Shown here: one piece after another, positions 10,332 through 54,407 of the stretch | Numbering within the stretch: position 1 is the first letter of the stretch | How the letters are laid out: the number at the start of each line of letters is the position of its first letter | DNA from: an uncultured archaeon | GTDB taxonomy: Archaea > Asgardarchaeota > Hermodarchaeia > Hermodarchaeales > Hermodarchaeaceae | Direction of reading: 5' to 3' | NCBI GenBank assembly: GCA_964347045.1 | Contig: CAYFXC010000002.1 | Span: forward strand, 96,001 to 160,000 | DNA length: 64,000 nt | Made by a program: the position numbers and the translations under genes | The notes under the pieces: model-generated | The model's database searches: none | Seen by the model: the letters and a program-made list of their open reading frames with translations, nothing else | What the model was told of the DNA's origin: nothing

Positions 10332-11456
10332 TTAGAAAAAGAAGGTGTCTTGTTCGTCGTCTTCAGGCTCTTCAGGCTCTTCAGGCTCTTCAGGCTCTTC
10401 AGGCTCTTCAGGCTCTTCAGGCGCTTCAAGCTCTTCGGCTGGTGTGTCCGATGCTTCTTCAGAGGTTTCGGGCTCATCAAAAATAATGGGTTCTGATGGC
10501 GTTCTAGCCTCGTCAGGTGATTCTTTAATTTCAGATGGAGGTTCTAGCTCAGACTCAACTGAAGGTTTGAGTTCGGGAGCTTCTTCTAGCTCAGGAACTG
10601 GTGGAACCGGCGGATGAGCTGTGTCAGGTGGGGTTGGTTCTTCCAACTCTTCCTTTTCAAATGGTTTCTCTATTTCGACTCTTTCGGCATTTACACCTTC
10701 GTCTTCATCTTCAAATTCAACATATGGTGTAAGCGAGATTTGACCATTCTTGACCTTGAATAAGTATAGGTGGGGTTCATAGTCGATACCCCGCATTTTT
10801 TCAATTTGACACCCAATGTGCCATCCTTCCTCATCATAAATCTTATAGAGTGCGATGACGCCATCGACGATGTGTTCAAGACGGCGTATTTCTTCTTCAG
10901 CATGCGCATCTGGAACGATTGTGTACATGAGAATATTACCATGATTTTTCTGCGCATTCATTTGATGACGCACATAATTAATGACTTCATCCGGATCTCG
11001 AGCGGAATGCAAAATTGAGGTTAATGAATCAATCACACCCCGAACATTATCCTTAGGTTTCATTGCAAGAACGGCTTTTCGAATAACGTCATGAACATGC
11101 CGAGGATTCCCCAAGTCATGTACCATAAATCTACTTTCCGGTTTAAACTCGCCCCAACCAAAGGCGTCAGTGAACGCGTCAATTCCCACAAGGCTTTTCA
11201 CTTTTAACGCTTTGTCAACGTCAATGCCTTTTTTCTTTAATTGTTCATAAGGAAGACGAAGTGGATATTCAGTACAGAGAATGTATGCAAGCTCACCTTT
11301 CAGAAGTCCGGTGGCCAAAAAGTTGGAAACAAAAGCATCTGAACGTGTTCCTATGTCTACTTCTAACAAGATTACATAACCACGGGGAATGCCCCCACCC
11401 AATACATCATCAAGGACAGAAATGCCAATTGGTGTTTTATCTGTCATAGTCTCCAC
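10332..11456 (-). CDS. RAD55/KaiC-like protein with degenerate Walker A and acidic Pro/Glu-rich tail
   Basis: GISVLDDVLGGGIPRG, VIDSLT, VDGVI, IEKMRG; tail (EEP)n then DTFFF. Confidence 0.85.
   Translation of the reverse strand: METMTDKTPIGISVLDDVLGGGIPRGYVILLEVDIGTRSDAFVSNFLATGLLKGELAYILCTEYPLRLPYEQLKKKGIDVDKALKVKSLVGIDAFTDAFGWGEFKPESRFMVHDLGNPRHVHDVIRKAVLAMKPKDNVRGVIDSLTSILHSARDPDEVINYVRHQMNAQKNHGNILMYTIVPDAHAEEEIRRLEHIVDGVIALYKIYDEEGWHIGCQIEKMRGIDYEPHLYLFKVKNGQISLTPYVEFEDEDEGVNAERVEIEKPFEKEELEEPTPPDTAHPPVPPVPELEEAPELKPSVESELEPPSEIKESPDEARTPSEPIIFDEPETSEEASDTPAEELEAPEEPEEPEEPEEPEEPEEPEDDEQDTFFF
10360..10422. repeat. 9-bp coding tandem repeat (TCTTCAGGC) x7 encoding (PEE)n
   Basis: Directly visible in sequence. 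Confidence 0.95.
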
Positions 11457-11761: not shown

Positions 11762-12202
11762 CTAAGAATAATCCCGCGTATAGTGCTCAGGATCTTCCAC
11801 GATATTGTAGCGATTCCCATCAGGGTCTTCAAAACCAGCCATGAAGCCCCCCCAAGGCATCTCTTCAGGAAGCATATGAAAGCGGACCCCGCGGGCCTTC
11901 ATTTTCTTGTAGAACCCATTGATATCCTGTGTTTCAAAGGTGATTCCGGTACTTCGCCCAATTTGATTTAGTTGCCATTCATACATAATAGGATCCGCAT
12001 CAGTATTAGGTTCTACGAAGGCAATTTTTGCCCGTTCATCATCGGGACCTAATTCTACCCAACCAAACCGGGGAGCGTAGAGGACAACGGGGATTTCTAA
12101 AATATCACGGAAAAACTCAATCGACGATTCTTGACTTGAAACAAATACGCGAACCGTCCAAATCCGATGAATCGCATCCTTTGATCCTTGATTTGCCGTC
12201 AT
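11762..12202 (-). CDS. VOC (glyoxalase/bleomycin resistance) family protein
   Basis: FFRDILE, ITFETQDI, MPWGG...FEDPDGN. Confidence 0.9.
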   Translation of the reverse strand: MTANQGSKDAIHRIWTVRVFVSSQESSIEFFRDILEIPVVLYAPRFGWVELGPDDERAKIAFVEPNTDADPIMYEWQLNQIGRSTGITFETQDINGFYKKMKARGVRFHMLPEEMPWGGFMAGFEDPDGNRYNIVEDPEHYTRDYS

Positions 12203-12341
12203 GATATTACACCATATATGGCTGATGGTTTAGAAATCATAACTGTTACTCTATTCCATAGTCAGGAAAAATAATTTTTTATCTTAACAACCTCCAAAAA
12301 AAGACAGGAGAGGTTATGCACGCGTAGGCTTTCTCTTCTCC

Positions 12342-12599
12342 TTGTATCCCTCATCATGGAATAATTCTGACAAGTATCTATATGATCTATACATTTCAAA
12401 TGTGACAGCTTATGCTCCAATTAAGTCCTACTCTCAATCTGGAGCCGCATCCATGTGGCGTCGATTCTGGCAGGAGGAATTCTCTAATGCGGGAAGTATT
12501 TTCACAATCTTTGTAATTATTGCAGTTGTTATTGGCATTTATCTTAAGGTGACTCCGTCTCCACTAGATGACTCAGGAAAAAACGCGCATTCTGAATGA
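12342..12599 (+). CDS. Short ORF with one C-terminal TM helix; possibly a gene remnant
   Basis: Hydrophobic IFTIFVIIAVVIGIYL; no convincing start. Confidence 0.3.
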   Translation: MYPSSWNNSDKYLYDLYISNVTAYAPIKSYSQSGAASMWRRFWQEEFSNAGSIFTIFVIIAVVIGIYLKVTPSPLDDSGKNAHSE

Positions 12600-12732
12600 T
12601 GTTACAGATGCTTCCGATCAATCCTTTTAAATGCGAATTCGATGGTCGAACGAAATTCGCGCTACCATAAAGGCTTTTATACACTGATAACTGGAGTGCC
12701 GCTATAACCCTCACCACGAGGGAGGTTTAAAA

Positions 12733-13965
12733 TTGAATTTTGAATTTTCAAAAGAAGAGGAGCTCTTCCGAGATACTGTCCGGGAATTCGCCCAAAAAGA
12801 AATCCGTCCCTACACTCGGGAAATGGATGAGAAGGGTGAATTGCCAACAGGTCTTGTCAAGAAAATGGCGGATCTTGGTCTACTTGGCATCACGGTTCCT
12901 GAAAAATACGGCGGACCGGGTGGGAATTTCAAGCTTACATGTATCGCGGCGGAGGAACTCGCTAAAGCGGACCTCAGCATCGCGATTCCCGTCTTTTACC
13001 TCGTCGAAGCCAGCTGGGCGTGGGTCTTTGCTCGTTACGGAACCGAGGAAGCAAAACAAGAGATTCTTCCAAAGGTCTGTAAAGGCGAGTATTTCTTTGG
13101 AATTGCAACAACCGAACCAGGTGGAGGCAGCGACATCGTTGGGGCAACCAAGACGACAATTGAAGAGAAAGATGACAAGTACGTTGTTAACGGTGAAAAA
13201 GTTTACATCAGCGGTGTTCGTGAATCGATGACAGCGATGCAAGGACGGTACTTCACCTTGGCTTACTTGGACAAGAAAGCTAAACCTAAACATCGTGGAC
13301 TTGCCGCATTCATACTTCCCGTCGAAAAGGATACCCCAGGTCTTACTCCCACGCTCTTTGAAGATTGGGGACGTATGGGTATAAGCACGGGTGGCTTTGC
13401 GATGGAAAACGTGGAAATACCCAAACACTGGCTCATCGGAGACCCGCAACGTGGCTTCGTATACTCCATGGAAGGTTTTTCCGCTGCACGTGTCATCATC
13501 GCCGCCACCTGTGTTGGCGCAGCTTTGGGAGGACTTGATATCGGCATGGACTACATCAAACAACGCAAAGCCTTCGGTAAAGAACTTGGAAAATATGAAG
13601 GCATCAGCTTCCCCCTCGCCGATTGGTACAGCCGCCTAATGGGAGACCGCCTTGTCATGTATCAAGCGGCATGGATGATGGACCAAATGTATGCAGGCAA
13701 CGAAAAATACAACCATTTCGACGTCGCCCTCTGGACCGCCATGGCCAAACTACGCGCTCCCATCGATGCATTCGCCATCCTCAACGAAGTCGCCGATTGG
13801 CACGGAGCATTTGGTTACACCAAAGAATGCGAATTAGATCTTGGCATCCGCGGTGTTCGAAGCTATTCAATTGGTGCGGAAGGCGGCATGAACATCATGC
13901 GGCTCATCATTGGTCGTGAACTCCTCGGAAAAGAGTTTGTACCTTACGATCGACCTAAAGAATAA
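12733..13965 (+). CDS. Acyl-CoA dehydrogenase
   Basis: TEPGGGSD, VNGEKVYIS, KQRKAFGK, HGAFGY; SD GGAGGT before TTG. Confidence 0.95.
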   Translation: MNFEFSKEEELFRDTVREFAQKEIRPYTREMDEKGELPTGLVKKMADLGLLGITVPEKYGGPGGNFKLTCIAAEELAKADLSIAIPVFYLVEASWAWVFARYGTEEAKQEILPKVCKGEYFFGIATTEPGGGSDIVGATKTTIEEKDDKYVVNGEKVYISGVRESMTAMQGRYFTLAYLDKKAKPKHRGLAAFILPVEKDTPGLTPTLFEDWGRMGISTGGFAMENVEIPKHWLIGDPQRGFVYSMEGFSAARVIIAATCVGAALGGLDIGMDYIKQRKAFGKELGKYEGISFPLADWYSRLMGDRLVMYQAAWMMDQMYAGNEKYNHFDVALWTAMAKLRAPIDAFAILNEVADWHGAFGYTKECELDLGIRGVRSYSIGAEGGMNIMRLIIGRELLGKEFVPYDRPKE

Positions 13966-13975
13966 CTGATATCGT

Positions 13976-14013
13976 GTGAGTGTAGAATTCTCTACACTCC
14001 TCACCTCTTTTTT
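13976..14013 (+). terminator. Hairpin plus T-tract between convergent genes
   Basis: GAGTGTAGA-ATTC-TCTACACTC (13978-13999) followed by CTCTTTTTT. Confidence 0.6.
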
Positions 14014-14044
14014 AAAAATGTATATAAAAGATAAGAGTAAAGGC

Positions 14045-14124
14045 GGACCATGGGTTGTCTAGGAGTGCACCAGAGGCCCGACCACACCGGTAGTCGAACC
14101 TCAGGTCCCGTCTTCCACCCATCC
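14045..14124 (-). ncRNA. Putative structured 3' RNA element of peptide locus A
   Basis: Minus-strand GAGGUUCGACUAC/GUGGUCGGGCCUC 13-bp stem with G-U pairs and a CGGU loop, plus outer AUGGGU/ACCCAU. Confidence 0.55.
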
Positions 14125-14268
14125 TCAACGAATGATTAGCCCAAGTGCCTGTTCAAGGCGTGGACCTGCGCGGGGATTAGTTCGACAACCAGCAAATAAT
14201 CGCTGTGCATTGGACATGCGAGCGACATTAGCGTAAAGACGAAGTTTCCGACCAATTTGTGTCTGCAT
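14125..14268 (-). CDS. 47-aa basic peptide A (MQTQIGRKLRLYANVARMSNAQRLFAGCRTNPRAGPRLEQALGLIIR), unknown family
   Basis: Hand translation; SD GGAGGT; homologous to peptides at 20483 and 20982. Confidence 0.8.
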   Translation of the reverse strand: MQTQIGRKLRLYANVARMSNAQRLFAGCRTNPRAGPRLEQALGLIIR

Positions 14269-14326
14269 ATTGTGTTTACCTCCAAGATTGTGCTTGGTGA
14301 AAACAGCGTACGCAGAATTAGATATG

Positions 14327-14352
14327 AATCGATGGGAGCTTCACAGTACAAG
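14327..14352 (-). promoter_or_regulatory. Conserved upstream element, copy A (CTTGTAC-N6-GCTCCCATCGATT)
   Basis: Shared with the other two peptide loci; 11-mer ends 60 nt before the ATG. Confidence 0.75.
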
Positions 14353-14949
14353 AACATGCAAAAAACGACGCATTTGCGTGTAATTTTGCACAAGATGGTA
14401 CAAACTTCCGTAAAGGCATCGATAACTAATATGTCTCTGCTTCGGGTAATCCTAACCACAGCTGCCTTCGAAATTCCGCACCCACCTGACGAAATTCGGG
14501 AAGATTGAGAAAAATCATTTTCTTTCGGTGATGAACACTCAGCAAGATTTACGTTAGGATATTATTTCTCCGAAAATAGAAAACCCTGCTAAAGAGTCGC
14601 AAATACTGATGCATCCGGTCAAGGGGGCTATAAAGGTTTACAGTGAAGCCACCGATGGTTTCGGCCCATTGGGCGTCATTGTCGATCTTTCCTTCCGTGA
14701 GATATGCCGGTGAAATGAGTAAAATATCCGCAGGCATAGTTATCGACTACTAGATTCAATAGAATTAGACTAAGTTTTGTAATTTATGGAATAACTGTTT
14801 GCTTGAATAAGCGAGAAAAGTGTTGTCTGCAACTATTAACCAAAAAAGAATTGGAGAGTTGATTTGAGGTTTTGCATCTGCAAAGGAATGCGAACACTTT
14901 TCTATATCCTTAGGTCGATAAGTGGGCGGAGGGATTTGCGATTATGATG

Positions 14950-15135
14950 CTACAATGGCCAACCTGGACTTTTACAGATTGGCCACTTGGTGACATTCCT
15001 ACTATTACACAAGCTATCGTAGTTATTCTCGTTATCGCCATCTTCATTATTGAGATTTACCGGCTCTGGAGATGCGATAATTGGTGTAGAAAGAAGAGAA
15101 GAGCTACTAGCGAATAGCAATTCATCTACAATCAC
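14950..15135 (-). CDS. 61-aa peptide with acidic/Asn-rich middle and C-terminal Cys pair
   Basis: GGGGGGAAGAGGG SD before GTG; divergent from S8 peptidase. Confidence 0.4.
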   Translation of the reverse strand: MIVDELLFASSSSLLSTPIIASPEPVNLNNEDGDNENNYDSLCNSRNVTKWPICKSPGWPL

Positions 15136-15323
15136 AATGCCCTCTTCCCCCCTTTTTTGGAACCCGCAAGCACTTTTGAAACGAAATTCGTTACCATGAA
15201 ACTTTAGTCAGTTATTTTAGAGGGTGAAAATCGTGAATGACACCACGCATAGGCATATATATTAATATTTAATGCCTTTAGGAATTGCTTGTTTAACTCA
15301 CATGGAGTTTGGAAGGGAGTTCA

Positions 15324-17075
15324 ATGCCAGTAAGAAAAAAAGATGAATTTGAAGAACAATTTATGAGTGCCATTGTGACAATCAAATCAAAGAATAAAGA
15401 TAAGTCTCTGTTGAAAAAAGAGACGAAGGATCAAAACTTCGAACAATTTGAACCCAAAGCAGGGAAAATTGACGCTGTAGCGAAATTGCTAGAAGCAAAA
15501 GGGTTTAAGGTCCTAGCAAAAGGCCATTTCAGCATAAGCATTGCAGCATCCATTAGTCATTTTAAGAAAACCCTTGGTGCTGAATTTGAACTGAGAAAGC
15601 AACCGGCATATGGTGCATTTGGGACTCAATTGATGGGAGTTGTTCGCCCAAAAAGTTTCTATATTGCAGCTAAAAGCCCAATCGATCCAAAGCCACTGGG
15701 AAAGGATATCCTTCATATTTCAATCGGAAGACCCTATCCTGTCTTTGGGCTAGTATCTGCTGTACCTCCAAGTCCAGATTATCCTCACCTAAAGATTCCA
15801 AATGATATTCGACGTCTTTTAGGGGTTGAAGGCGTCAGTTATACAGGCAAAGGCGTTCATGTGGTAATGATTGATACTGGATTTTGGCAACCGCGAGTTG
15901 ATGCGATATGCTCGAAACCATTTCATGAATACTATAATGCAAATTTATCTCAAACGGTGCAAAGTCAAATTCGAGTTGAAAAAGTGAAATGGTGGTATGA
16001 TGACCTGCTTGATTTGGGAGGACATGGAACTGCAATGGCATCAGGATTATTTGCGGTGGCACCTGGAATTCAGTTCACAATGGTGAAAGCGGGTGGTCTT
16101 GAATTCGATTGGCCGGGAATGTTTATACACGGAGGCATCTATCTTTATGAAGGCTTTTTAAAAGTGCGAGAACTTGAGCCCGACATCATAGTCTTGTGTA
16201 CAGGCGCGCCAGAAGAGTGGATTATCAATGACCCAGAGCAACAGGCTCTAAAGGAAATGATAGAAGCTGAAATAGTTAGAGAGTTAAATCGGGGAACAGT
16301 TATCGTTGCAGCTACCGGAAATATGGATCAGACAGATGCAAATTTACCAAACCATGCACCGCTATCTTGGCCTTCATCTCATCCTGATGTCATTGCAGTT
16401 GGTGGAGCCTATCCTGAAACACCAGCTTCACCACCGTGGGTGGCTTCTGACGTAGCATCTAGTGGTAATTCAGGAATACATAGTGGACGAACAATTCCTG
16501 ATGTGTGTGGAATTTGTGGACCCACAATAATTGAAGACCGTGGTCAGCAAGGGAGAATTAGATATCCTGCGCCATATATTACAATGCCAACTCAATGGGC
16601 TGCTATCCCAGCTGATTTACACAGCGCTTTAGGTCAAACAGCTTTTGATGCTTGGCTCATTGCCAACGGCACGTCTTGTGCGGCCCCCATGGTCGCTGGT
16701 GTAGTGGCTCTCATGCTAGAAAAGGTAGGAGATAGATCAATTTTCGATCCTACGAGGCTCTCAGCTAAACTAAAAGATTTATTTAGATTGCCTGGGAGCC
16801 AAAGCGGTTGGCATTCTGCTAGCGTTCTCCGACCACGCTTGATAAAGAAGGTGCTAAAGCAAACAGCCATTGACGTTGGGATGGGAATGAGTGCGAATAA
16901 TCATCAAGCAATACCTAATTCCCATGACTTAGCTACTGGAGCAGGTGTTGTGAATGCTACTGCTGCCCTTGCGGCTGTAAATCCTAATGAGGTTAAGACA
17001 ATCATAATGCGAAAAGGGATTTCCATGTCCGATTATGCTGGTCAGCAATTTAAACCAGATTCCTTTTTTCCCTAA
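15324..17075 (+). CDS. Subtilisin-like S8 serine peptidase with N-terminal prodomain
   Basis: Triad VMIDTG / GGHGTAMAS / NGTSCAAPMVAG; oxyanion AATGN; no obvious signal peptide. Confidence 0.9.
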   Translation: MPVRKKDEFEEQFMSAIVTIKSKNKDKSLLKKETKDQNFEQFEPKAGKIDAVAKLLEAKGFKVLAKGHFSISIAASISHFKKTLGAEFELRKQPAYGAFGTQLMGVVRPKSFYIAAKSPIDPKPLGKDILHISIGRPYPVFGLVSAVPPSPDYPHLKIPNDIRRLLGVEGVSYTGKGVHVVMIDTGFWQPRVDAICSKPFHEYYNANLSQTVQSQIRVEKVKWWYDDLLDLGGHGTAMASGLFAVAPGIQFTMVKAGGLEFDWPGMFIHGGIYLYEGFLKVRELEPDIIVLCTGAPEEWIINDPEQQALKEMIEAEIVRELNRGTVIVAATGNMDQTDANLPNHAPLSWPSSHPDVIAVGGAYPETPASPPWVASDVASSGNSGIHSGRTIPDVCGICGPTIIEDRGQQGRIRYPAPYITMPTQWAAIPADLHSALGQTAFDAWLIANGTSCAAPMVAGVVALMLEKVGDRSIFDPTRLSAKLKDLFRLPGSQSGWHSASVLRPRLIKKVLKQTAIDVGMGMSANNHQAIPNSHDLATGAGVVNATAALAAVNPNEVKTIIMRKGISMSDYAGQQFKPDSFFP

Positions 17076-17272
17076 TTCCACCAATTGTAAAAAAGTATCA
17101 TAGTAAAACTTGATTTTACAAAAAAGCGAGTCTATCACATGGAAGGTCTCAATCCTATCAATTAGTTTTGTCTAATCCTCCTTTATGTGGAGGGTTTCTA
17201 ATTTCTAAAAGTGGAAACTGTTGAGTAAACTTGATAATCAGATGAAGCCCATTGATAATTGAGAAGGCGATA

Positions 17273-18244
17273 ATGGATCTCATTGATAAACGTATCATAT
17301 TCGAACTACTGATTAATTACCGTACCTCGTATCAAGCCATCGCAAAAAAACTCGACCTATCTGTTAACGCTGTGAAGAAACGTTTCGAGAAGTTAAAAAG
17401 TGTGGGAATTATCCGTGGAGGTTCTCTGGTACCTTTACCTGTGATGAAAGGAACAGAAGATTGGATGGCAATATTGCGATTAAAAGAGTCTGGTGCCTCC
17501 GATGACCTTCTGGATAGCATTGGATCTCATTTATTAGTTCAATCCGGAAGTATCTTGACAGATGGAAGCATTCTCTGTTTCGGCCATTATAGTGGAGCAC
17601 AGGATCTTCAGGAGATAGGAACATTTCTGCGTCAAGTTAAGGGTGTGACATCAGTTGAATTTCATACAATTCTGAATGCCTTAGGAAAGAAGTGTGACTT
17701 AGATGATTCAGATTTGAAAGTGCTTCGTTGTCTTCGAGAAGAACCACGAATCTCAATAAGCAAAATTACTAGGAAAACAGGTATTACTCCTCGTCGAGTA
17801 AGTCAGATTCTGAAAAAATTGATAGGAGAGAATGGAGCAGAGCCTACTTTCTATGTAAATTGGGAACCACAGGGAGGAACACAACCTGATGAAGTCAGTT
17901 TCTTAATGAGAGTTCATTGGAATCTAAATGCTGGCGGTTATACTGCCTTTATTGTTCAAATTCGTCATAAAGAAGGCATAGAAGAAGGTAAAAGAATTAC
18001 TGATATTCTGACGGCTAATTATCCATTCGAGTTTTGGTATGCATATGCTTCAGCATTTGAGCCCGTGATTTTCTGTATATTCCTCGTTGAACACATTCAT
18101 GATTCGATTGATATCATTAACATGATTAAACAAGTTCCGGAGGCGATTGACGTATATCCAATCTTTGGATATCCAACAAGAGTCTTTCGTAGTCAGGTTG
18201 ATGATTACTTTGAAAGAATCTTCAAACAGCTAGATTTTCCTTGA
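17273..18244 (+). CDS. Tandem Lrp/AsnC-like regulator (2x wHTH-RAM)
   Basis: DLIDKRIIFELLINYRTSYQAIAKKLDLSVNAVKKR; second HTH LDDSDLKVLRCLREEPRISIS. Confidence 0.85.
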   Translation: MDLIDKRIIFELLINYRTSYQAIAKKLDLSVNAVKKRFEKLKSVGIIRGGSLVPLPVMKGTEDWMAILRLKESGASDDLLDSIGSHLLVQSGSILTDGSILCFGHYSGAQDLQEIGTFLRQVKGVTSVEFHTILNALGKKCDLDDSDLKVLRCLREEPRISISKITRKTGITPRRVSQILKKLIGENGAEPTFYVNWEPQGGTQPDEVSFLMRVHWNLNAGGYTAFIVQIRHKEGIEEGKRITDILTANYPFEFWYAYASAFEPVIFCIFLVEHIHDSIDIINMIKQVPEAIDVYPIFGYPTRVFRSQVDDYFERIFKQLDFP

Positions 18245-18452
18245 AGAGTTTTATGAATAATGCTAATTACAATTGAAAATTTCAGACAGGTTTAACACGC
18301 GTACAACATTTGCTTTGTGTTCATATTTTTATGTGACCTTTGTATAGTAGGTGTGGATTCGGACCTTTCATACGCTGCGTGGGTGGTGCGGTGATGGTTT
18401 CACGACTCCATCTACTATCGATGGCAACCTAGAGTATCTAGGCGTGGTAGAT

Positions 18453-19424
18453 ATGGACGAAATTGATAAGAATATTCTTTTTGAGCTTTCTGTTAACTAT
18501 AGGGCTTCTTATCAGACTATGGCTAAAAAGTTGAATCTTTCCGTTAATGCAATCAAGAAACGAGTTCAAAAACTTAAAGATGATGGAGTAATTCGTGGGG
18601 GGGTGTTGATTCCCTCGAATGCTATGTTGGGTATGGAAGATTGGGTCGCACTTTTACGTACCGAAGATCCGATTCCCTCTGACTCTTTCTTAGATAGTCT
18701 GGGAGAGCATGAGTACGTCAATTCTGCAAGCATTTTAACGGATGGAAGCGTTCTCTGCTTCGGGAATTATCCAGGGGCTCAAGGCCTTGAGGAAATTGGA
18801 ATGTATTTGCGAAGGACACCGGGCGTGTTATCCGTGGAGTTTCATACGATTCTAACTGAACAAGGAAAAAAATGTGAGTTATCTTTATCAGAGTTGAAGG
18901 TCCTCCAATGTTTGCGTCAAGAACCACGAATGTCTATTAGTGATTTAGCTGAGAAAACACGTCTTACCCCTCGGCGCATTCGAAAAATTATCCAAAAATT
19001 GCTAGGTGAAAATGGATCTGAACCAGGTTATTATATCGAATGGGAGCCAAGAGGCGGAAGCCGAGCTAGTGAAGTAAGTTTTAGGTTAAACGTACATTGG
19101 GATTTGAATGCCGGAGGGCATACTGCATTCGTTATTATTATCTGCCATGAGGAGGGCGTTGAATCACGGTCCAAGATTGTAAAGGTGCTCAGAGAACAGT
19201 ATCCTGTGAAATTCTGGTACGCGTATGCATCAGCCTTTGAGCCGGTCTTTTTCAGTGTCTTTGTGGTCGAGCACATGCGTGAAGCAAGCCAAATTATTGA
19301 AACGCTGCGACGGACTCCAGAAGTAATCTCAGCTAATGCAATCTATGGGTATCCTACTAAGGCATTTCTAAGCCCAATTGACAAGTATTTTATGCAGCTT
19401 TTCAAAAGGCTTGAAAGTGAATAA
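18453..19424 (+). CDS. Tandem Lrp/AsnC-like regulator, paralog of 17273
   Basis: MDEIDKNILFELSVNYRASYQ; shared ILTDGS, VEFHTIL, HWxLNAGG, FWYAYASAFEPV. Confidence 0.85.
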   Translation: MDEIDKNILFELSVNYRASYQTMAKKLNLSVNAIKKRVQKLKDDGVIRGGVLIPSNAMLGMEDWVALLRTEDPIPSDSFLDSLGEHEYVNSASILTDGSVLCFGNYPGAQGLEEIGMYLRRTPGVLSVEFHTILTEQGKKCELSLSELKVLQCLRQEPRMSISDLAEKTRLTPRRIRKIIQKLLGENGSEPGYYIEWEPRGGSRASEVSFRLNVHWDLNAGGHTAFVIIICHEEGVESRSKIVKVLREQYPVKFWYAYASAFEPVFFSVFVVEHMREASQIIETLRRTPEVISANAIYGYPTKAFLSPIDKYFMQLFKRLESE

Positions 19425-19450
19425 TTAACCTTTGACACCCACCAATCTGT

Positions 19451-20206
19451 TTAATGATGTTTTGATTTGCGGTAGCACCCATAACCAAATGCACTCCCGA
19501 GAACAAATGGAACCAGAAGCAAAATTGTTAATCCTATGGTTTGGAGGACTTGTTGGGATTGTTCTTCTACGGAGAAAATTCCAAGGCGTCCGAGATTGTT
19601 GGTCGTGAGTTCCCTTGTGAATTTGTAGGTATAGATAGCATGTTGAGATGCTAAGAGTTCACTGGTATGCTTGATAAGGATACCCTGGGAGTGGTGGAAG
19701 TGCCAGATTTCTCTGGAGAGTTGGTAATCGTCGTCAATTGAGAGCCAGGCAACTGAACTGGCCAGCCAACAGAGATAAGTGCCTGAAGATACGTGAGTGT
19801 ACTCAGATGAGAGGTGAAACTCACCAGAGTAGGTTGGCACTTGGATTGTATCTCCAAGATGCCATAATGAGGTGTCAACCCATAAAGGAGGTTGGAGTAC
19901 CTGATCTGTTGCAGAGCCATTGCTCAATAAAATATTCCATGTGGAGATATCGACAGAGAGTAACTGGTGTGTTGAATACTCTTCAGTGGATGAGAAATTT
20001 ACAATAAGAACGGATTCGCCAAGTTCAGGAGCCCATCGAATGATTTCGTAGCGTTCATTCCATGCATTAAAGGCATCATCAGTGATGTGATAGGTAAGTA
20101 TGAGGTCAACGGGAAAGGGCGTAGAAGCTGATTTTACGGGAAAGAAAAAACACGGGAGAATAGGAAGGCATAGAAACAAGATTATTGTTTTGCATTGACT
20201 TTTCAT
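19451..20206 (-). CDS. Secreted/membrane-anchored protein (signal peptide plus C-terminal TM)
   Basis: MKSQCKTIILFLCLP N-terminal hydrophobic stretch; C-terminal TM plus basic tail; start uncertain. Confidence 0.7.
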   Translation of the reverse strand: MKSQCKTIILFLCLPILPCFFFPVKSASTPFPVDLILTYHITDDAFNAWNERYEIIRWAPELGESVLIVNFSSTEEYSTHQLLSVDISTWNILLSNGSATDQVLQPPLWVDTSLWHLGDTIQVPTYSGEFHLSSEYTHVSSGTYLCWLASSVAWLSIDDDYQLSREIWHFHHSQGILIKHTSELLASQHAIYTYKFTRELTTNNLGRLGIFSVEEQSQQVLQTIGLTILLLVPFVLGSAFGYGCYRKSKHH

Positions 20207-20284
20207 CGTGAAGCCATTGGTTGTGTGGAATTGAAGCCCAAATAGCTTATCCTTTGAAGAAAAATGCCATTTCTTCAAAAAACC

Positions 20285-20482
20285 AAAAAAAATCCGCCGG
20301 GTCTTCATCGTTCCTTCCCCTCCATTTTGGCACTTCCCGGTCCAAGTTTGTATGGGTGGCATTGGACCTTTTTGGACAACGGATCCGGAGTTGTTGTCCG
20401 GTTACCGTGAAGACCCGGCGTCAGTCAGCGTCCAAGGTCCGCGTCCCTGGTGTTGCAATGTCAATACCTGTTGTAAGCGTGA
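20285..20482 (-). ncRNA. Putative multibranch 3' RNA element of peptide locus D, ending in U8
   Basis: Perfect 13-bp IR 20295-20307/20408-20420 enclosing two 7-bp hairpins (20339-45/20362-68; 20374-80/20393-99); A8 at 20285-20292. Confidence 0.65.
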
Positions 20483-20626
20483 TTAGCGTCGTGAAGTGAC
20501 GATGGCGAAGTTGATTCGATCGCGGGGGGTGCCTTTGGGGTTCTTTGCACCTGTCACAGCGCGTTCTGTGACCGGCATTTTGGGAATGATATTTTTCTTG
20601 TGTCCGGTTTCTTTCTTATTGGTCAT
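20483..20626 (-). CDS. 47-aa basic peptide D (MTNKKETGHKKNIIPKMPVTERAVTGAKNPKGTPRDRINFAIVTSRR)
   Basis: Hand translation; SD GGAAGGTGA; homologous to peptides A and B. Confidence 0.82.
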   Translation of the reverse strand: MTNKKETGHKKNIIPKMPVTERAVTGAKNPKGTPRDRINFAIVTSRR

Positions 20627-20684
20627 TTTCTATCACCTTCCTGACGATGCAGGTCAAGTGTGTATAACCCTTAGATTGCCTATT

Positions 20685-20710
20685 ATTCGATGGGAGCTTG
20701 TCGGTGCAAA
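20685..20710 (-). promoter_or_regulatory. Conserved upstream element, copy D (TTTGCAC-N6-GCTCCCATCGAAT)
   Basis: 11-mer at 20687-20697, 60 nt before the ATG, same spacing as locus A. Confidence 0.75.
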
Positions 20711-20801
20711 AATCCGACAAAATAATGAGAGTTGAACCATCTTTTGCACTAGTTAGTGCAAAATTTAGATTGGTAACGGTTTTAGTTCGAGAAGGGGGTA
20801 A

Positions 20802-20981
20802 ACCGGGTCCGCAGAAGCTCCAGGCCAAAGGAGTCAGAAGGGTAGTAGGTCCGTTGCCGGATCGCTGCTACGCCGATCACCCGACAACGGATGGAGGCGA
20901 TTGGTGCTTGTGCAGACCCGAGATATTAGGCTGAGAGGAGGACCGGATGGCTTTGTAGTCACCATGGGGATTCCTCACAGT
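20802..20981 (-). ncRNA. Putative structured 3' RNA element of peptide locus B
   Basis: Closing stem CGGGUCUGCA/UGCGGACCCG (20911-20/20804-13) and inner UCCGUUGUCGG/CCGGCAACGGA (20881-91/20850-60), G-U pairs on the minus strand. Confidence 0.6.
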
Positions 20982-21122
20982 CTAGCGTCGACTAAGGACC
21001 AGCATAACTGCGTACCGAGTGCGTGGTTTTGCAATCGGATGGGGGTTGCGGCAGCCAGCGATAGCTCGTTCAGAAGCCGACATTTCAGCGATTTTCTTGT
21101 GTTTATACTTGGATTTGGCCAT
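20982..21122 (-). CDS. 46-aa basic peptide B (MAKSKYKHKKIAEMSASERAIAGCRNPHPIAKPRTRYAVMLVLSRR)
   Basis: Internal ATG of track ORF 20982-21284 with SD GGAGGG; homologous to A and D. Confidence 0.82.
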   Translation of the reverse strand: MAKSKYKHKKIAEMSASERAIAGCRNPHPIAKPRTRYAVMLVLSRR

Positions 21123-21206
21123 TCTCAAATCCCTCCAATTGTGTTGTCTCCGGGATTCCCGGGGAGAAACCCCGTTGCATGTGAAAGAAGGCGGCCGTTT
21201 GATAAG

Positions 21207-21232
21207 AATCGATGGGAGCCAAGAAGTGCAAA
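21207..21232 (-). promoter_or_regulatory. Conserved upstream element, copy B (TTTGCAC-N6-GCTCCCATCGATT)
   Basis: 11-mer at 21209-21219, 86 nt before the ATG; extra length matches a leader hairpin. Confidence 0.75.
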
Positions 21233-21420
21233 TCTTCTCGAAAGAAACCTGTGAAAGATAGTTTTTTTGAACCACATTATGCAAAATTTAGCTTTAAATT
21301 AGGAAGTTTTCCGTTTGGGTTGATTTTCACTATCAGAGTTTGTGAATAAGTTTTCTTAAGATTTTTTTGGGGTGTTCTGCGAAGGCTTTTGTGAACTCGG
21401 TTATAGTGTAACCTGGTGAG

Positions 21421-21945
21421 TTGATGATCAAGCAAGAAATGGAGCCGATGGCGGGAATACAGGCGTTACCGGCATTTCCGGTGGTTCTCGTTACTGTGCA
21501 GGATAACGTGATGACAGCGGCAGCATTTCATTTCTTTTCTTTTAACCCGCCGAGTGTGATGGTGGGAATTCGTCCACAGGCGCATACATTTAAACTAATT
21601 TTAAAGAGTCGTGAATTTGGAATTAATTTACCTCAGAAGGAGCAAATTGATGTGGTTCGAGTTTGTGGTTCAGTGTCAGCGAGAGATGAAGATAAGTTCC
21701 AAAAAACAGGGTTGACACCAATGAAAGGAACAGTTATTAATAGCGTGTTGGTGGCAGACTGTCCGGTAAATTTGGAGTGTCGAGTGGTTCATGAGGTTCA
21801 GTTTGAGGGAAGCCATCGGTGGTTTGTGGGAGAAGTTGTTGCAGCCCATATTGCGGAGGATTATTCTAAAGATACAATGCTAATGTATTGGGCTCGTGAA
21901 TATCGTCGTGTTGGGGATGTGTTATTGAGTGTGAAACGCCGTTAA
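21421..21945 (+). CDS. Flavin reductase family protein
   Basis: FPVVLVT, NVMTA, CGSVSARDEDKF, CPVNLECRV, HRWFVGEV. Confidence 0.9.
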   Translation: MMIKQEMEPMAGIQALPAFPVVLVTVQDNVMTAAAFHFFSFNPPSVMVGIRPQAHTFKLILKSREFGINLPQKEQIDVVRVCGSVSARDEDKFQKTGLTPMKGTVINSVLVADCPVNLECRVVHEVQFEGSHRWFVGEVVAAHIAEDYSKDTMLMYWAREYRRVGDVLLSVKRR

Positions 21946-22020
21946 TGTGAATTAGTGAATGGAGAGAACTTTTCTTTGAAAGAAGTGTGGTGAAGGTGGA
22001 AATTAGGATTTGATTATACT

Positions 22021-22458
22021 ATGAATCCACTACAGGTGTTTCCTTTCAAGAACATGCCTAAAATGGTCGATTTAATCGCTGAAGGCGAAGTAGGTGTAGG
22101 CGCTGTTCGGTCTGCGACAGGTATGTGTGGGTTTGATTCCACTGAGGTTTCTGATATGTTAGCGTATTTGACTAGTTTTGGCCGAGTGGAAACGAAGGAA
22201 AATGGGTGGATAATCCTAAGGGCGGAAGAGGAAGCAGTATATGGGCGGTTTCGGAAGGCGTATCTGAAAGCGCCGATAGCTATTCTGTCTAATTTGTCTG
22301 AAGAAGTGAAATCGGTTGAACAGCTATCACAGGAAACGGGTCTATCAGTGGAGACTGTTGATCTGTATTTGCCGTTCTTAGTTGAGATTACGCGGCTAGG
22401 TGTAATTAGTCGATGTGCAACTGAGTATCCGGTGATTTGGTGCCAAAAATCAAAGTAA
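22021..22458 (+). CDS. Hypothetical protein, likely tandem winged-helix
   Basis: KSVEQLSQETGLSVETVDLYLPFL and a similar N-terminal helix pattern. Confidence 0.5.
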   Translation: MNPLQVFPFKNMPKMVDLIAEGEVGVGAVRSATGMCGFDSTEVSDMLAYLTSFGRVETKENGWIILRAEEEAVYGRFRKAYLKAPIAILSNLSEEVKSVEQLSQETGLSVETVDLYLPFLVEITRLGVISRCATEYPVIWCQKSK

Positions 22459-22753
22459 CTGATCGAGTTGTGATAGGATTTCTCTCGCTTTACCAGAAAG
22501 GTGAATATCTGTCCCGATTGTGAGCAGTGTTGTTTCGACGTTTACTTCGAGGATTTGCTCCTCGTGTTGCCTGATAATAAGAGGAAATATGACGACAGGT
22601 TTGACAGTTGCAGAGGATTACACAGGGAGAGTATCTGCTGGTTGGAGTTTAGCAAACACTTGATCCATGATTTCAAAAGGAAGGCTTTAACCGAACCTGA
22701 AAACTTTGAAAAAATGAATGTTTTTTATCTTTTAAAGCACCTAAGATTTTGCC

Positions 22754-23122
22754 ATGACGCGCGTAGTTCATTTTGAAATCGCTGTCGATAGCCCGGATCG
22801 AGCAATCAAATTCTATCAGTCAGTTTTTGGTTGGAAAATTGAGAAATGGGAAGGTCCAGTGGATTACTGGATGGCCGTCACTGGTGAAGAAGGTGTACCT
22901 GGAATTGATGGTGCCTTTCAACTTCGATCGGATGCTCCACAACCCATTATCAACATTATTAGTACTTCCAATGTCGATCAAACGGTTAATCAAATCGTGA
23001 AAGCAAATGGTTCAATTCTTCGCCCAAAAATGGCTGTCCCTGGAGTTGGCTGGGCGGCATATGCCAAGGATACAGAAGGGAACGTTTTCGGGTTGATGCA
23101 AAGCGATCCAGAAGCAAAATAG
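22754..23122 (+). CDS. VOC family protein
   Basis: VVHFEI, FYQSVFGW, PGVGWAAYAKDTEGNVFGL. Confidence 0.92.
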   Translation: MTRVVHFEIAVDSPDRAIKFYQSVFGWKIEKWEGPVDYWMAVTGEEGVPGIDGAFQLRSDAPQPIINIISTSNVDQTVNQIVKANGSILRPKMAVPGVGWAAYAKDTEGNVFGLMQSDPEAK

Positions 23123-48563: not shown

Positions 48564-49961
48564 ATGGCAATTGCTTCTGAGGAGTTCCTAGATAGGGTGG
48601 AAAACCGTATTCTGAACCGTTTGGTTCCCCAGGAAAGGAGTCCTGTTAGGAGCCTGTTACAGAATGTGATAATTCTAATTAAACGTGTTAGGGGCCAACA
48701 ACTAAGTGAGGATGAAAGAGTATATCCACTACATCCTCTTTTAGCTGTTATCGGTCAAAAAGCAGGAGAGATGACGCTACAAACCCTTCTTTATCGATTA
48801 CATCTAGTTGACAGATATGAATTTAATAAATCAAAGGATATTATTAGTGTTCTAACTCGAAAAATTCCCATTGGAATTAACGAATCATTATCAGCTCGCA
48901 AAGCCCAAATTCTTTGGCATTTATTCCAAAATCCTTCACTCCCCAAATATCAATTAGCCAAGGAACTAGGCACAACACCACGCACCATATCAAAAGAATT
49001 AACTGAATTGCATCAGGATTTGGCGTTTAACATTTGGACAACGCTTGATGCTCATAAATTCCATTTTGTTGTGAAAACCATTATATTCAGAACACGATCA
49101 ATAGAACACACAAAACGGCTGGAGAATTTCATTTCTAAAGGACAAGGATTTCTCCGCACATTTCATCTTGATCAAGATATACGAAGCGGTGAAATTGTTT
49201 ATCGATATCCTGATCAACCAGAAGCCCATAAGATGTTTAAAGAGCGATATCGTTGGCTTCAAGATGAGTTCTTTATCGAATCTCATTTAGTTCAAATTCT
49301 TGGGTTATTCCAATCGATTTCGCTTGAGACATATAATCCAGCAACGAATTCCTTTTCAATTGAACCGGAAATAGTCTCAGAAGCACCGTTCGGCTACTTT
49401 AAAGGGCATCTTGATACACTCCCCCAACCTCAGGGAATAGACTACACACAACCATTTAGGTTCGACAAAGCAGATTTTCTTTTAGCTGATACCCTATATT
49501 CATCTGGACCTTTTAGGAAATCCGATTACAAACGAAATCTTTTGAACCGACATGGTATCAACTACTCAATGAAAACAGTCTGGAAGAAAGAACAACGACT
49601 TCGAAGAGAGAATGCCGCAATTCCAATGATTGATCTACAAATTCCAGGTTTTGACGAAGATTTACTCTTTGTTGTGTTTTGTACACCAGACGCAACTAAG
49701 TCGATTCATGCGATCTCAGCATTTCTTCCATTTGTTATGACTTTTAACACAGATTCAGGCTGTTTTTTGAGAATCCAACGTCCAATTCATACATCTACTC
49801 TTACGGGACAGCTGATTCGTAAAATCAATCATCAAAAAGGAGTTTTTGATGTAAAATTGCTTCGTTTTCAATGGAGAATCCAGATGCCGATATTACCGAA
49901 AATTGTTGATTGCTGGAATATCGAGGAACAGAAATGGTTGATACAGGAAGACGCCATTTGA
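48564..49961 (+). CDS. Large tandem Lrp-like wHTH regulator with uncharacterised N-terminal domain (paralog 1)
   Basis: LSARKAQILWHLFQNPSLPKYQLAKELG; aligns along its length with 49965 and 55101. Confidence 0.7.
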   Translation: MAIASEEFLDRVENRILNRLVPQERSPVRSLLQNVIILIKRVRGQQLSEDERVYPLHPLLAVIGQKAGEMTLQTLLYRLHLVDRYEFNKSKDIISVLTRKIPIGINESLSARKAQILWHLFQNPSLPKYQLAKELGTTPRTISKELTELHQDLAFNIWTTLDAHKFHFVVKTIIFRTRSIEHTKRLENFISKGQGFLRTFHLDQDIRSGEIVYRYPDQPEAHKMFKERYRWLQDEFFIESHLVQILGLFQSISLETYNPATNSFSIEPEIVSEAPFGYFKGHLDTLPQPQGIDYTQPFRFDKADFLLADTLYSSGPFRKSDYKRNLLNRHGINYSMKTVWKKEQRLRRENAAIPMIDLQIPGFDEDLLFVVFCTPDATKSIHAISAFLPFVMTFNTDSGCFLRIQRPIHTSTLTGQLIRKINHQKGVFDVKLLRFQWRIQMPILPKIVDCWNIEEQKWLIQEDAI

Positions 49962-49964
49962 GCT

Positions 49965-51404
49965 ATGGAGGAAGGTCAAATAATGACACGCGGGAAAAGA
50001 CAGCTCAAACAAAAAGAGGATATCACTCAAGAGTTTATTGAACGTATCATTACCCGTTCTAGACCAGAAGACGATCACGAGGAACTGCGGATTTTTCTTA
50101 CTAATGTGCGTCTATTCATTAAGCGTGTTGAAGGTTTCGATTTAACTGAGGATGAAAAAGAATATCCGCCTCATTCACAATTCACACATCATACCTTGAG
50201 GAAGGGACGAAGTACAGCGGACGGTTTGAAGTATCGATTGAGAACAATTGACCGATACAAGATAACCAACGTCCAACAAATAATCAACATAATAGCATCA
50301 ACCGCGGTTTCAAGTCCAAAAGGAAAATTAACTCTCCGACAGATACAGATAATCCAAGAACTACACAAAAACCCCCTATTACCTCAATACGAACTCGTAC
50401 AGCGACTCTCTACAACTTCCTCAATCATTCGGAACGAACTAAAATTTCTTCGGCGACGTTTTTCGATGGGCATAATTAACAATTTAGATTACAATAAATT
50501 CAAGTTAGGACTATTTGAGATTGATTTTCGCACCATGTCCTTAGATGCCTCTGAAAAACTTGAAATGCATTATCGACGAACTCCACCTCCATTTCTACGA
50601 CGGATTAGTTTTGACCATAACTACCGCGATGGTTTCATTCACTATTTAATTCCAGATCAACCTTCGAGCCATCAAAAGCTTGCTGAACGGATTGCTTGGT
50701 TAAACTCAAACTTCTTACAGGAATCGGCTTGTTTTCGAACACATGGTTTTCGAGTTGACTTGTCATTTGAAAATTACAATATTCCCACCGGAACTTGGAT
50801 GCTTGATGCAAATACATTTTCAGTCGACATGTTAGAATTCCTATCTCGTCAAAAACGTGATCAACCCCAACCGCGGGAACGTACATACACGAATCCGATT
50901 CACTTTGATAGGGTTGACTATATTCTTGCGTCTACCCCCTATCTTTTTGGAGAAAAGCAGCGTATTGAAGTTCGACAAAAGGTGTTAAAACGCCACGGGT
51001 ACACAATATCCAAGAAAACGATTTGGAACCGTGAAAAGAAATTACAGCAGGCAGATGTTTTTTATCCGTCAGTTTGGTATGATTCCCCTGAGTTGGAGGA
51101 GCTTGTGAAATTCACTATAAACTGTACAAATAATGCACTCGAAAAGATTTACCGTCTTATTTCCATCCTACCATACACTTATTCGGTGCCAACGGACGTC
51201 GGTGTGACCTTCACGTTCCAACGACCGAGTCGATGTTCTTCGATAACTGGATTATTAACGAAAGCGTTTGACAAAATTGATGGAGTCTCAAATATTTGGG
51301 TGATCCGATATGAGCCTACATTCAGTCCACAGTTGTTTACCCAAGTTGTAGATCGATGGGATGAAAGTCATCAACGTTGGTTACTACAAAAAGGCGACAT
51401 TTAA
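49965..51404 (+). CDS. Large tandem Lrp-like wHTH regulator (paralog 2)
   Basis: LTLRQIQIIQELHKNPLLPQYELVQRL; PDQ, FDRVDY, C-terminal W-x6-W. Confidence 0.7.
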   Translation: MEEGQIMTRGKRQLKQKEDITQEFIERIITRSRPEDDHEELRIFLTNVRLFIKRVEGFDLTEDEKEYPPHSQFTHHTLRKGRSTADGLKYRLRTIDRYKITNVQQIINIIASTAVSSPKGKLTLRQIQIIQELHKNPLLPQYELVQRLSTTSSIIRNELKFLRRRFSMGIINNLDYNKFKLGLFEIDFRTMSLDASEKLEMHYRRTPPPFLRRISFDHNYRDGFIHYLIPDQPSSHQKLAERIAWLNSNFLQESACFRTHGFRVDLSFENYNIPTGTWMLDANTFSVDMLEFLSRQKRDQPQPRERTYTNPIHFDRVDYILASTPYLFGEKQRIEVRQKVLKRHGYTISKKTIWNREKKLQQADVFYPSVWYDSPELEELVKFTINCTNNALEKIYRLISILPYTYSVPTDVGVTFTFQRPSRCSSITGLLTKAFDKIDGVSNIWVIRYEPTFSPQLFTQVVDRWDESHQRWLLQKGDI

Positions 51405-51414
51405 TCCGTATAGC

Positions 51415-52317
51415 TCATTTGTGTGAAGCGTGGATTATTGTGTAGAAATGGTCAACGAGTTGTTCGGCAATATTGATTTCAGTAACTTGCTGTAAACCTT
51501 GCCAGCCGCTACTACTATTAACTTCAGTGACAACAGGTCCGTTCTTTGTTTCTAATATGTCAACGCCAGTATAAGCTAACCCAATCGTTTCCGCACATTT
51601 TTCTGCGATATCGGCAAGCCCGGGTGAAAGGTGAAGGGGTTTGGGCTCGGCTCCTTGTCGGAGAGTTGTTTTCCAGTTATCCCCAACACGAGTCATTGCA
51701 GCAATGGCTTTATTTCCTATGACAAAAACACGGATATCCCGATTCCCGTGCTCAAGATATTCTTGGACATACATGACATATCGACTTGCCTCAAGCGCTC
51801 GAAACACTCTTCGGGCAATTTCATGATCAGTTATTCGAGTCATTCCTACACCACCGGACCCGAAAAGTGGTTTTACCACGATATCTTTGTATCGTCGAAA
51901 GGCGTGGAGTGCATCACGCGCATATTGAGTAATTGTTGTTGAAGGAACAGGGATTCCAGCTAATTCAAGTAAACGTAGAGTATAGTACTTGTCCACAGCT
52001 TTTTCGATGGCATGAGGGCGATTCATAAAAGGAATACCAAGGCGTTCGAGGCAGTGAAGAGTATCCATTCGCAAAATTACTTGCTCTAGGGATCCGCCGG
52101 GAACAGCCCGAGTGAACACGCCTTCAAGGGTGGTTAAATCTTCTCTTTTGAACTGAACACGAGGACGTTTTCCTCCAACTCTGACGATGGTTTCGGTTAC
52201 ATCGAATACGACGCATTTTGTGTCTCGTCTCTGAATCTCACTAACAAGACGACTTGTCTCCCAGCCTTCAGGTTCCGTTGAAGCAACACCCACCCGACGA
52301 ACTCTCCTTCGCAACAT
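51415..52317 (-). CDS. RimK-family ATP-grasp glutamate ligase (MptN/CofF-like)
   Basis: GGSLEQVILRMDTLH, DKYYT, VVKPLFGS, DIRVFVIG, EVNS; adjacent to cofE. Confidence 0.9.
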   Translation of the reverse strand: MLRRRVRRVGVASTEPEGWETSRLVSEIQRRDTKCVVFDVTETIVRVGGKRPRVQFKREDLTTLEGVFTRAVPGGSLEQVILRMDTLHCLERLGIPFMNRPHAIEKAVDKYYTLRLLELAGIPVPSTTITQYARDALHAFRRYKDIVVKPLFGSGGVGMTRITDHEIARRVFRALEASRYVMYVQEYLEHGNRDIRVFVIGNKAIAAMTRVGDNWKTTLRQGAEPKPLHLSPGLADIAEKCAETIGLAYTGVDILETKNGPVVTEVNSSSGWQGLQQVTEINIAEQLVDHFYTIIHASHK

Positions 52318-52320
52318 GTT

Positions 52321-53103
52321 TCACCTTCGAAAAATATCTCGTTCTTCTTCCCGAATAAGGATCTTTGCTGATCCTTTGCCCTTCTCATAGCGGTATCCGC
52401 GAATCACAATAACCGCATTTCCTTCATCAGCCTCACCCATTAGTAATTCTGCGGCAGAGGCTAGTTCATCAGCAATAGCAACTTTTGTGCTTCGTAATTC
52501 ATATCCAAAGAGATCGGTTAGACCGACATAACTTTTCATGGGGATGAGGCCGGCGATTCCAATTGCGACATTAATGGCACCATCTCGGAATGGTCGCCCA
52601 TGGGTATCGGAAATTATAACACCAACATCTATTCCCAAACACGCTTTGATTGTACTCCGAATTTTTTCCGCAGAAGCGTCAGGGTTTTGTGGAAGCAGCG
52701 TCACACAATCGGGGTTCGGAACATTCGATGAATCGATGCCCGCATTTGCACAAACATAGCCATGGTGAGTTTCTACTATGAGATGCCCTTGCTCAGCTCG
52801 TACCACTTTGCGTGATGCTTGTAAAATTACCTCAACAAGTTCAGGACGTTTGTCCAACTTCTTAGCAAGTTCTTTAGCCTCCGAGGAGGGCGTAACAGTT
52901 GAAAGGTTGATAGTTCGCCCTTCAGCACGAGATATTATTGTTTGTGCGATAACTAAGATGTCGCCGTTTACAATTGCGAATCCACTTTTCTTACTTGCTT
53001 CAATAATTTTAGCGCCAACATCATCGCCTACTTTGATAATTTCTAAACGGGGTAAGGAATGGACGGAATATGATAATGAATCACTTGGTTTAGATGAAGG
53101 CAT
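52321..53103 (-). CDS. cofE: Coenzyme F420-0:L-glutamate ligase
   Basis: ISRAEGR, HGYVCANAGIDSSN, SDTHGRPFR, ADELASAA.L.MGE. Confidence 0.95.
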   Translation of the reverse strand: MPSSKPSDSLSYSVHSLPRLEIIKVGDDVGAKIIEASKKSGFAIVNGDILVIAQTIISRAEGRTINLSTVTPSSEAKELAKKLDKRPELVEVILQASRKVVRAEQGHLIVETHHGYVCANAGIDSSNVPNPDCVTLLPQNPDASAEKIRSTIKACLGIDVGVIISDTHGRPFRDGAINVAIGIAGLIPMKSYVGLTDLFGYELRSTKVAIADELASAAELLMGEADEGNAVIVIRGYRYEKGKGSAKILIREEERDIFRR

Positions 53104-53253
53104 GTTCGAGTCGTTCGGGATTCCGTTTTTCCAGCTTAAGAGTTTGCCGACTCGAAAGATGACGCCCGAAGGAAAGCTATAAAGACGAGAACCACTGCAG
53201 CAATCTTATCATCTAACCAATGCCATTGATCTAATGCTTCGAGTGTGCAAAGT

Positions 53254-53862: not shown

Positions 53863-53886
53863 GACACATAAAAATTGGTGGAGTTA

Positions 53887-54058
53887 ACCAAGAAGGGGGA
53901 AGAAATCCCAGTTTTATAATAATACAGTAGGCCCCAAAGCCCTTCTTGGTCAGTTCCCCGCTGGTCTTTTTCTACCAATTCCTGATGGTGCCGGTTTAAC
54001 CCAGCTGAACTCTGCCCCGATGCAGGCGAGAGACAACGGGGCAGAGCCATATGACTGG
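53887..54058 (-). ncRNA. Putative structured 3' RNA of locus C
   Basis: Perfect IRs CTCTGCCCCG/CGGGGCAGAG (54010-19/54037-46) and ACCAAGAAGGG/CCCTTCTTGGT (53887-97/53940-50). Confidence 0.5.
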
Positions 54059-54406: not shown

Positions 54407-54407
54407 A

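Follow-up and report, generated by a model that had tools for sequence, protein, structure and literature searches.

Three small genes on the minus strand of a 64,000-nucleotide stretch of DNA from an uncultured Hermodarchaeaceae archaeon (assembly GCA_964347045.1, contig CAYFXC010000002.1, positions 96,001 to 160,000; the whole stretch is called the window here) carry an identical 11-mer upstream of their ATG codons, which raises the question of what this element does. A preliminary description of the window had proposed either a site for an alternative TFB or one for a dedicated activator that compensates for poor TATA boxes. Our analysis favours the second: the 11-mer is the promoter-proximal end of a cassette of about 85 bp, here called class 1, which we take, judging from its layout, to be probably an activator-dependent archaeal promoter rather than a repressed one. 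The likeliest readers of its operator are, with a rough probability of 0.6 for this reading as a whole, tandem (double) Lrp/AsnC proteins of the clades encoded beside the target genes. The three genes encode basic micropeptides, paralogs of one another:

14125-14268 (-), basic micropeptide A, 47 aa
20483-20626 (-), basic micropeptide D, 47 aa
20982-21122 (-), basic micropeptide B, 46 aa

The class-1 cassette in the window

The three copies of the 11-mer were re-located at the positions first reported, each preceded at a spacing of six bases (N6) by CTTGTAC (A) or TTTGCAC (D and B) and followed by a TATA-like 8-mer; the half-sites and the 8-mers were also correct in the sequence. In the window the composite pattern matched 3 times, where shuffled sequence predicts 0.03 matches. 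The surroundings of the 11-mer had to be redrawn in part. It is non-palindromic, as described, but the whole element includes a palindrome, TTTGCAC-N6-GTGCAAA, and the TTTGCA and TGCAAA sequences seen further upstream are not loose extra copies but this single palindrome, which keeps a set distance from the proximal half-site, 52 bp in A and D and 53 bp in B. Likewise, the 11-mer does lie 60 nt from the ATG in A and D and 86 nt in B, but the constant distance is that to the inferred transcription start and not to the ATG; the 86 nt are due to a longer, hairpin-containing leader in B. The 11-mer occupies the slot of the TFB recognition element (BRE). The parts are as follows:

14384-14405 (unstranded), distal palindromic operator of A, core TTGTAC-N6-GTGCAA at 14386-14403, 52 bp upstream of the proximal half-site
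14346-14351 (-), proximal half-site TTGTAC of A
14329-14339 (-), 11-mer of A, BRE slot or degenerate right half of the proximal site
14321-14328 (-), weak TATA-like box TTCATATC of A, predicted start at 14298 (CA step)
20742-20763 (unstranded), distal operator of D, TTTTGCAC-N6-GTGCAAAA, arms perfectly complementary, offset 52
20704-20709 (-), proximal half-site TTGCAC of D
20687-20697 (-), 11-mer of D
20679-20686 (-), weak TATA-like box ATAATAGG of D, predicted start at about 20655
21265-21286 (unstranded), distal operator of B, TTTTGCAT-N6-GTTCAAAA, offset 53
21226-21231 (-), proximal half-site TTGCAC of B
21209-21219 (-), 11-mer of B
21201-21208 (-), weak TATA-like box TTCTTATC of B, predicted start at 21178, then a 5' hairpin

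Alignment of 33 sites gave the order of the cassette: the palindrome TTTGCAC-N6-GTGCAAA, 34 variable bases with T-tracts, and TTGCAC-N6-GCTCCCRTCGA-WTNATAT. The offset between the two left half-sites was 52 in 37 of 44 sites and 53 in the other 7. In 31 of the 44 a pyrimidine-purine step, which frequently coincides with the beginning of a 5' hairpin, was found 30 nt after the beginning of the TATA-like box and 53 bp after the proximal half-site (54 in D-type sites), and from this we infer that transcription starts about 53 bp 3' of the proximal half-site. Such a start puts the 8-mer where archaeal TATA boxes usually lie, with the two sites five and ten helical turns away from the start. The proximal half-site is then 23 bp, and the distal palindrome 75 bp, ahead of the TATA-like box, whose position itself rests on the predicted start. 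Class-1 boxes (WTNATAT) are weak in every member and deviate from the purine-rich slot with TTTAAA or TTTATA found at several tRNA promoters of the same genome; a crude BRE profile of the whole genome was too noisy for use. A fourth exact 11-mer, at 13756-13766 on the plus strand, lies within an acyl-CoA dehydrogenase coding sequence and has neither operator nor TATA box, so it is not a member of the regulon.

This geometry bears on whether the sites could be repressor operators. In favour of this, the BRE slot is directly adjacent to the proximal half-site, and there are Lrp factors that occupy the BRE through an accessory site (PMC3597687) or act dually (PMC7830388). Against this, the strongest site lies about 100 bp upstream of the predicted start, every member has a weak TATA box, and no conserved site was seen between the TATA-like box and the predicted start in the aligned class-1 sites, so that repression appears very improbable.

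In the B-type promoters of loci L002, L008 and L018 the opposite strand carries a third half-site 52 bp past the distal palindrome, so that in some relatives, though not in the host genome, three sites form a symmetric array. Parts of the cassette (TTGCAC...AATAAT, CCCAT and TTAGCAC) resemble bacterial sigma-70, sigma-32 and CIRCE elements. These likenesses were rejected: the genome is archaeal, the spacings do not fit and there are no chaperone targets.

Members and distribution of the class-1 and class-2 sites

The preliminary description had proposed a candidate regulon and a matrix scan of the genome and its relatives. With a class-1 matrix trained without the host genome (Hermodarchaeia, an Asgard metagenome-assembled genome, MAG), exactly five host-genome sites were found, at 60-78 bits; the next match scored 6.8, and the maximum in the reversed-genome control was -3.4. 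Their targets are the three paralogous micropeptide genes and two unrelated small genes on contig C13, one for a membrane peptide of 80 aa and one for an acidic protein of 88 aa, and relatives contribute a fourth target family, of small membrane proteins. The regulon thus comprises five genomic sites with non-homologous target genes and is conserved in relatives; together with the activator-type position of the sites, these observations support the dedicated activator. The locus at 54881-54893 was not among the top class-1 scan matches and has no matching palindrome at -52. In the sister genus, one class-1 promoter (L094, G017 C337:1263, minus strand) has no clear open reading frame behind it and possibly serves a non-coding RNA.

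The same set of sites was used to judge whether the repeated element might have no regulatory role, either as a leftover from gene duplication or as a site for a tyrosine recombinase at a hot spot of rearrangement. Recombinase sites of the dif type have an arm-N6-arm layout, which the N6 spacer recalls; A, B and D are paralogous, and the gene content between them varies strongly among relatives. However, the cassette precedes four non-homologous gene families. Identity between gene classes was 0.59-0.86 in motif columns versus 0.23-0.36, that is, random identity, in the spacers; the N6 spacers differ among all five host-genome sites, whereas recombining partners need matching spacers. The spacing to the TATA-like box and to the start step is fixed. 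Since the spacers are randomised while the spacing is kept, the sites are not a residue of recent duplication, and a non-regulatory origin of either kind is barely credible.

The operator-only pattern was present in 13 of 19 genomes of the family (Hermodarchaeia) and in none of 282 other Asgard genomes. A scan of the extended pattern over 185,579 genomes returned 19 stretches, of which 16 were Asgard MAGs, several of them labelled Hermodarchaeota; the remaining 3, bacterial and of other lengths, were taken as chance. The 11-mer is not invariant: GCTAAGGCGWA replaces it in the sister genus and in one congener, and other variants occur elsewhere, while the operator is retained. What is recognised is therefore not the 11-mer by itself.

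A second class of sites emerged from a micropeptide paralog on contig C22, which has the layout of class 1 but GAAC-N6-GTTC half-sites. A generic scan for this architecture with any half-site did no better than its control (15 real versus 17 control matches), so only class-specific matrices were used. The class-2 matrix, built from six orthologous promoters, all of peptide paralogs, found five more host-genome sites at 24-30 bits, against a control maximum of 19.7. One of them is in the window:

61592-61677 (+), class-2 promoter with class-1 geometry: CCGAAC-N6-GTTCGG, proximal ATTAAC at +52, GGTTCCATGA, TATA-like box

It lies upstream of a gene for an Rce1-like membrane protease (61721-62590), and class-2 targets are mostly membrane or secreted hydrolase-like genes. 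The offset was 53 in 33 of 36 class-2 sites, with a start step at +53 in 24 of the 36, and both classes have G-Y-T-N-C-C-R-Y in the slot ahead of the TATA-like box. The strict class-2 pattern occurred in 12 of the 15 genomes of the genus and nowhere else among 41.

Candidate readers of the operator

Two candidate readers are encoded in the window, between micropeptide genes A and D:

17252-18244 (+), tandem Lrp/AsnC regulator 1
18351-19424 (+), tandem Lrp/AsnC regulator 2, likely start 18453, two helix-turn-helix (HTH) plus alpha/beta modules

Among the genes next to class-1 sites, tandem Lrp genes are the most frequent (17 of 22 loci), and one adjoins the sites in both sister-genus loci; the linkage holds across the two genera, although the remaining neighbours differ. 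Genomes with the motif have close homologues of the window pair, which the five without the motif lack. The syntenic interval of genome G006, which is fully assembled, is devoid of peptides, operator and Lrp genes alike, and so is the assembled part of the interval in G009. The tandem Lrp gene of the C13 clade, at C13:31624-32581, is divergent from a class-1 operator. Class 2 has its own clade: in 11 of 11 congeners class-2 sites flank the tandem Lrp of the C23 clade (in the host at C23:9348-10365) on at least one side, and such a site precedes the gene just upstream of it. The recognition helices of the tandem Lrp proteins, both of them basic, are conserved within clades and different between clades. 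Two orphan proteins of about 140 aa, related by eye and without Pfam match, were also noticed (L033:4093-4518 and L226:3316-3738); one adjoins the class-1 C13 locus and the other stands under the class-2 promoter upstream of the C23 tandem Lrp.

NirDL and AhbAB bind heme through an HxYxR-type motif. The structural model of a tandem Lrp was confident (predicted local distance difference test, pLDDT, 93.5) and matched NirDL and Lrp proteins, the best match being the NirDL/AhbAB double AsnC (PDB 4ch7; E 4.9e-13, template modelling score 0.55), which likewise has two HTH plus alpha/beta modules in one chain. Identity to 4ch7 was 14%, and the HxYxR-type motif was not visible in the alignment. The Lrp-type effector-binding domains suggest that the signal may be a small metabolite or peptide.

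A number of observations weigh against the tandem Lrp proteins as readers. The host genome has about 14 tandem Lrp/AsnC genes, that is, many paralogs, and these genes are mobile and inserted in many places, including beside a TFB gene, so that the linkage may reflect shared variable islands. Independent linkage events are few: 3 of about 7 host-genome site clusters lie at most 3 kb from a tandem Lrp gene, versus a genome coverage of 3%. Class-1 sites are neighboured by two different Lrp clades, and no class-1 operator was found in the promoters of the window-clade Lrp genes. The motif columns were defined from the sites themselves, a circularity that does not affect the held-out scan or the fixed spacing. 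TrmBL1 of the TrmB family binds a 6-5-6 palindrome, a layout close to the 6-6-6 palindrome of the cassette. The box is 18-20 bp long with a variable N6 centre, at odds with the 15-bp AT-centred boxes known for Lrp (PMC1802622).

The number and mobility of the Lrp genes, the operator-free promoters and the box length would also fit an activator-type promoter of the same kind read by another, unlinked factor (TrmB, ArsR/MarR, or the double winged-HTH proteins of about 470 aa encoded at 48564-56537), the tandem Lrp genes being mere neighbours. We think this unlikely, as both operator classes adjoin tandem Lrp clades and the linkage persists over two genera. Three HTH proteins of about 470 aa, encoded at 48564-51404 and 55101-56537, were missed by the tandem-Lrp profile and are possible alternative regulators.

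The other answer initially offered, an alternative TFB, would make the 11-mer a non-canonical BRE for a dedicated TFB paralog, acting alone or with an operator-bound factor. It has weak support, in that the host genome has six TFBs and two TBPs. Five of the TFBs share the helix VTEVT-VRNRYKE and one, on contig C8, has a divergent helix, ITEVT-LRSRQRE, kept across the family and retaining Q, V, T and R at what, going by the Pyrococcus TFB structure, are presumably the contact positions. The gene of this divergent TFB lies, within L132:5408-7346, directly downstream of a tandem Lrp gene in the host and 4 of 5 congeners, and one gene apart in the fifth. The slot element common to both classes would offer it a target, and it is a possible partner there. 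Precedents with several TFBs and an atypical BRE slot are TFBb at the Halobacterium hsp5 promoter (PMC2396416) and TFB2 in Sulfolobus (bioRxiv 10.64898/2026.09.06.749720). However, five motif-bearing and five motif-lacking genomes have the same TFB groups, no TFB promoter scores as a class-1 site, and the tandem Lrp gene next to the divergent TFB is absent from the sister genus, where the 11-mer is replaced. Core elements suffice at hsp5, whereas the most conserved part of the cassette is the upstream palindrome. Given the variation of the 11-mer and the absence of any TFB paralog that follows it, we prefer a dedicated activator, and a paralog-specific TFB seems quite improbable.

We found no description in the literature of promoters or regulons in Hermodarchaeia, nor of the class-1 cassette. 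Archaeal activators are known to bind upstream of the BRE where TATA box and BRE are weak (PMC5512572; LysM, PMC3597687; CopR, PMC7830388), so the surprise of an upstream activator rescuing a weak core promoter is limited. Judged by analogy, the cassette works like the LysM, Ptr2, CopR and EarA promoters and is not in the classical 15-bp Lrp-box family. As in LysM at lysW (PMC3597687), Ptr2 and CopR (PMC7830388), a semi-palindromic site lies upstream of both BRE and TATA box, and a strong site is combined with a degenerate accessory one on one helical face, next to non-consensus core elements. The boxes of those factors are 15 bp long and directly adjoin the BRE or are 21 bp apart, whereas 52-53 bp separate the sites of the cassette, whose boxes are longer, and a fused double Lrp is its candidate reader. 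The operator of Ss-LrpB (TTGCAAAATTTGCAA, three regularly spaced boxes; PMC1802622) has a similar TTGCA half-site in an array, but the pentamers are 8 bp apart in the cassette versus 5 bp, the centre is not AT-restricted, the sites are usually two with one of them a mere half-site, and the window clade yielded no autoregulatory box. The EarA sites and ARA box (PMC5512572) likewise place a conserved element just upstream of a weak BRE and TATA box in an activator-dependent promoter; these elements are short and non-palindromic and lack the five-turn distal partner.

Under the activator reading, two sites of the candidate regulator, beginning about 105 and 53 bp ahead of the start, would let the bound factor bring TBP and TFB to the weak TATA box and to the 11-mer as a non-consensus BRE slot, and this recruitment would turn on five small genes together; the GAAC-N6-GTTC version, at a second set of genes, would be read by a paralogous Lrp clade. 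More tentatively, with doubt outweighing belief, Hermodarchaeia may use a modular promoter code with a fixed five-and-ten-turn scaffold and a non-canonical BRE slot, where GCAC or GAAC half-sites select paralogous double-Lrp activators, possibly with a family-wide divergent TFB, and one branch would drive basic micropeptides and small membrane peptides in a programme of the dormancy or signalling type. With operators defined to the letter and candidate regulators named, the two sharply bounded regulons are open to in vitro tests that need no culture; confirmation would give DNA targets to an expanded and uncharacterised tandem Lrp family.

Micropeptides and 3' RNA elements

The micropeptide family was present in 17 of 18 other genomes of the host's family and in none of 22 other Asgard genomes, with only 21 representatives among 1.8 billion proteins. 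The micropeptides had no Pfam, PDB, Atlas or fold match, and the structural model was of low confidence (pLDDT 61). Four more paralogs were found in the host genome (G000), at C13:57006 (-), C22:28290 (-), C5:123161 (+) and C6:44882 (-); one has a variant promoter adjoining a tandem Lrp gene, one a class-2 promoter and one an ordinary TATA promoter, and one is a pseudogene with three stops. Control thus differs within this orphan family, from class 1 and class 2 to an ordinary TATA promoter. At three sister-genus loci (L049, L050 and L089) the promoters of peptide paralogs read GCCCGCC-TTATATA or similar, near the eukaryotic BREu consensus SSRCGCC, and stand below a GTCAC-N5-GTGAC palindrome that also occurs upstream of some class-2 peptide promoters.

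Peptide genes D and B are followed by related structured elements:

20296-20419 (-), structured 3' element downstream of peptide D, conserved, with a U-tract after the closing stem
20803-20921 (-), structured 3' element downstream of peptide B, a relative of the D element

This multibranch RNA element, with a closing stem CCGGGTCTTC/GAAGACCCGG, a conserved CCGTTG and a U-tract, was seen in both genera (L001, L002, L029 and L093). It had no Rfam match, and Rfam gave nothing credible across 12000-23000. One copy, in L004, lies about 270 nt from the closest peptide gene. In L031 (G000 C5, about 123330-123420) a 27-aa micro-open reading frame ending in LVLVRR was noted 3' of the C5 peptide paralog and 5' of a copy of the RNA element. 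Elsewhere in the window, the only other 11-mers with at least 4 copies belong to an acidic PEE tandem repeat at 10332-10500 (-), at the C-terminus of a KaiC/RecA-like ATPase.

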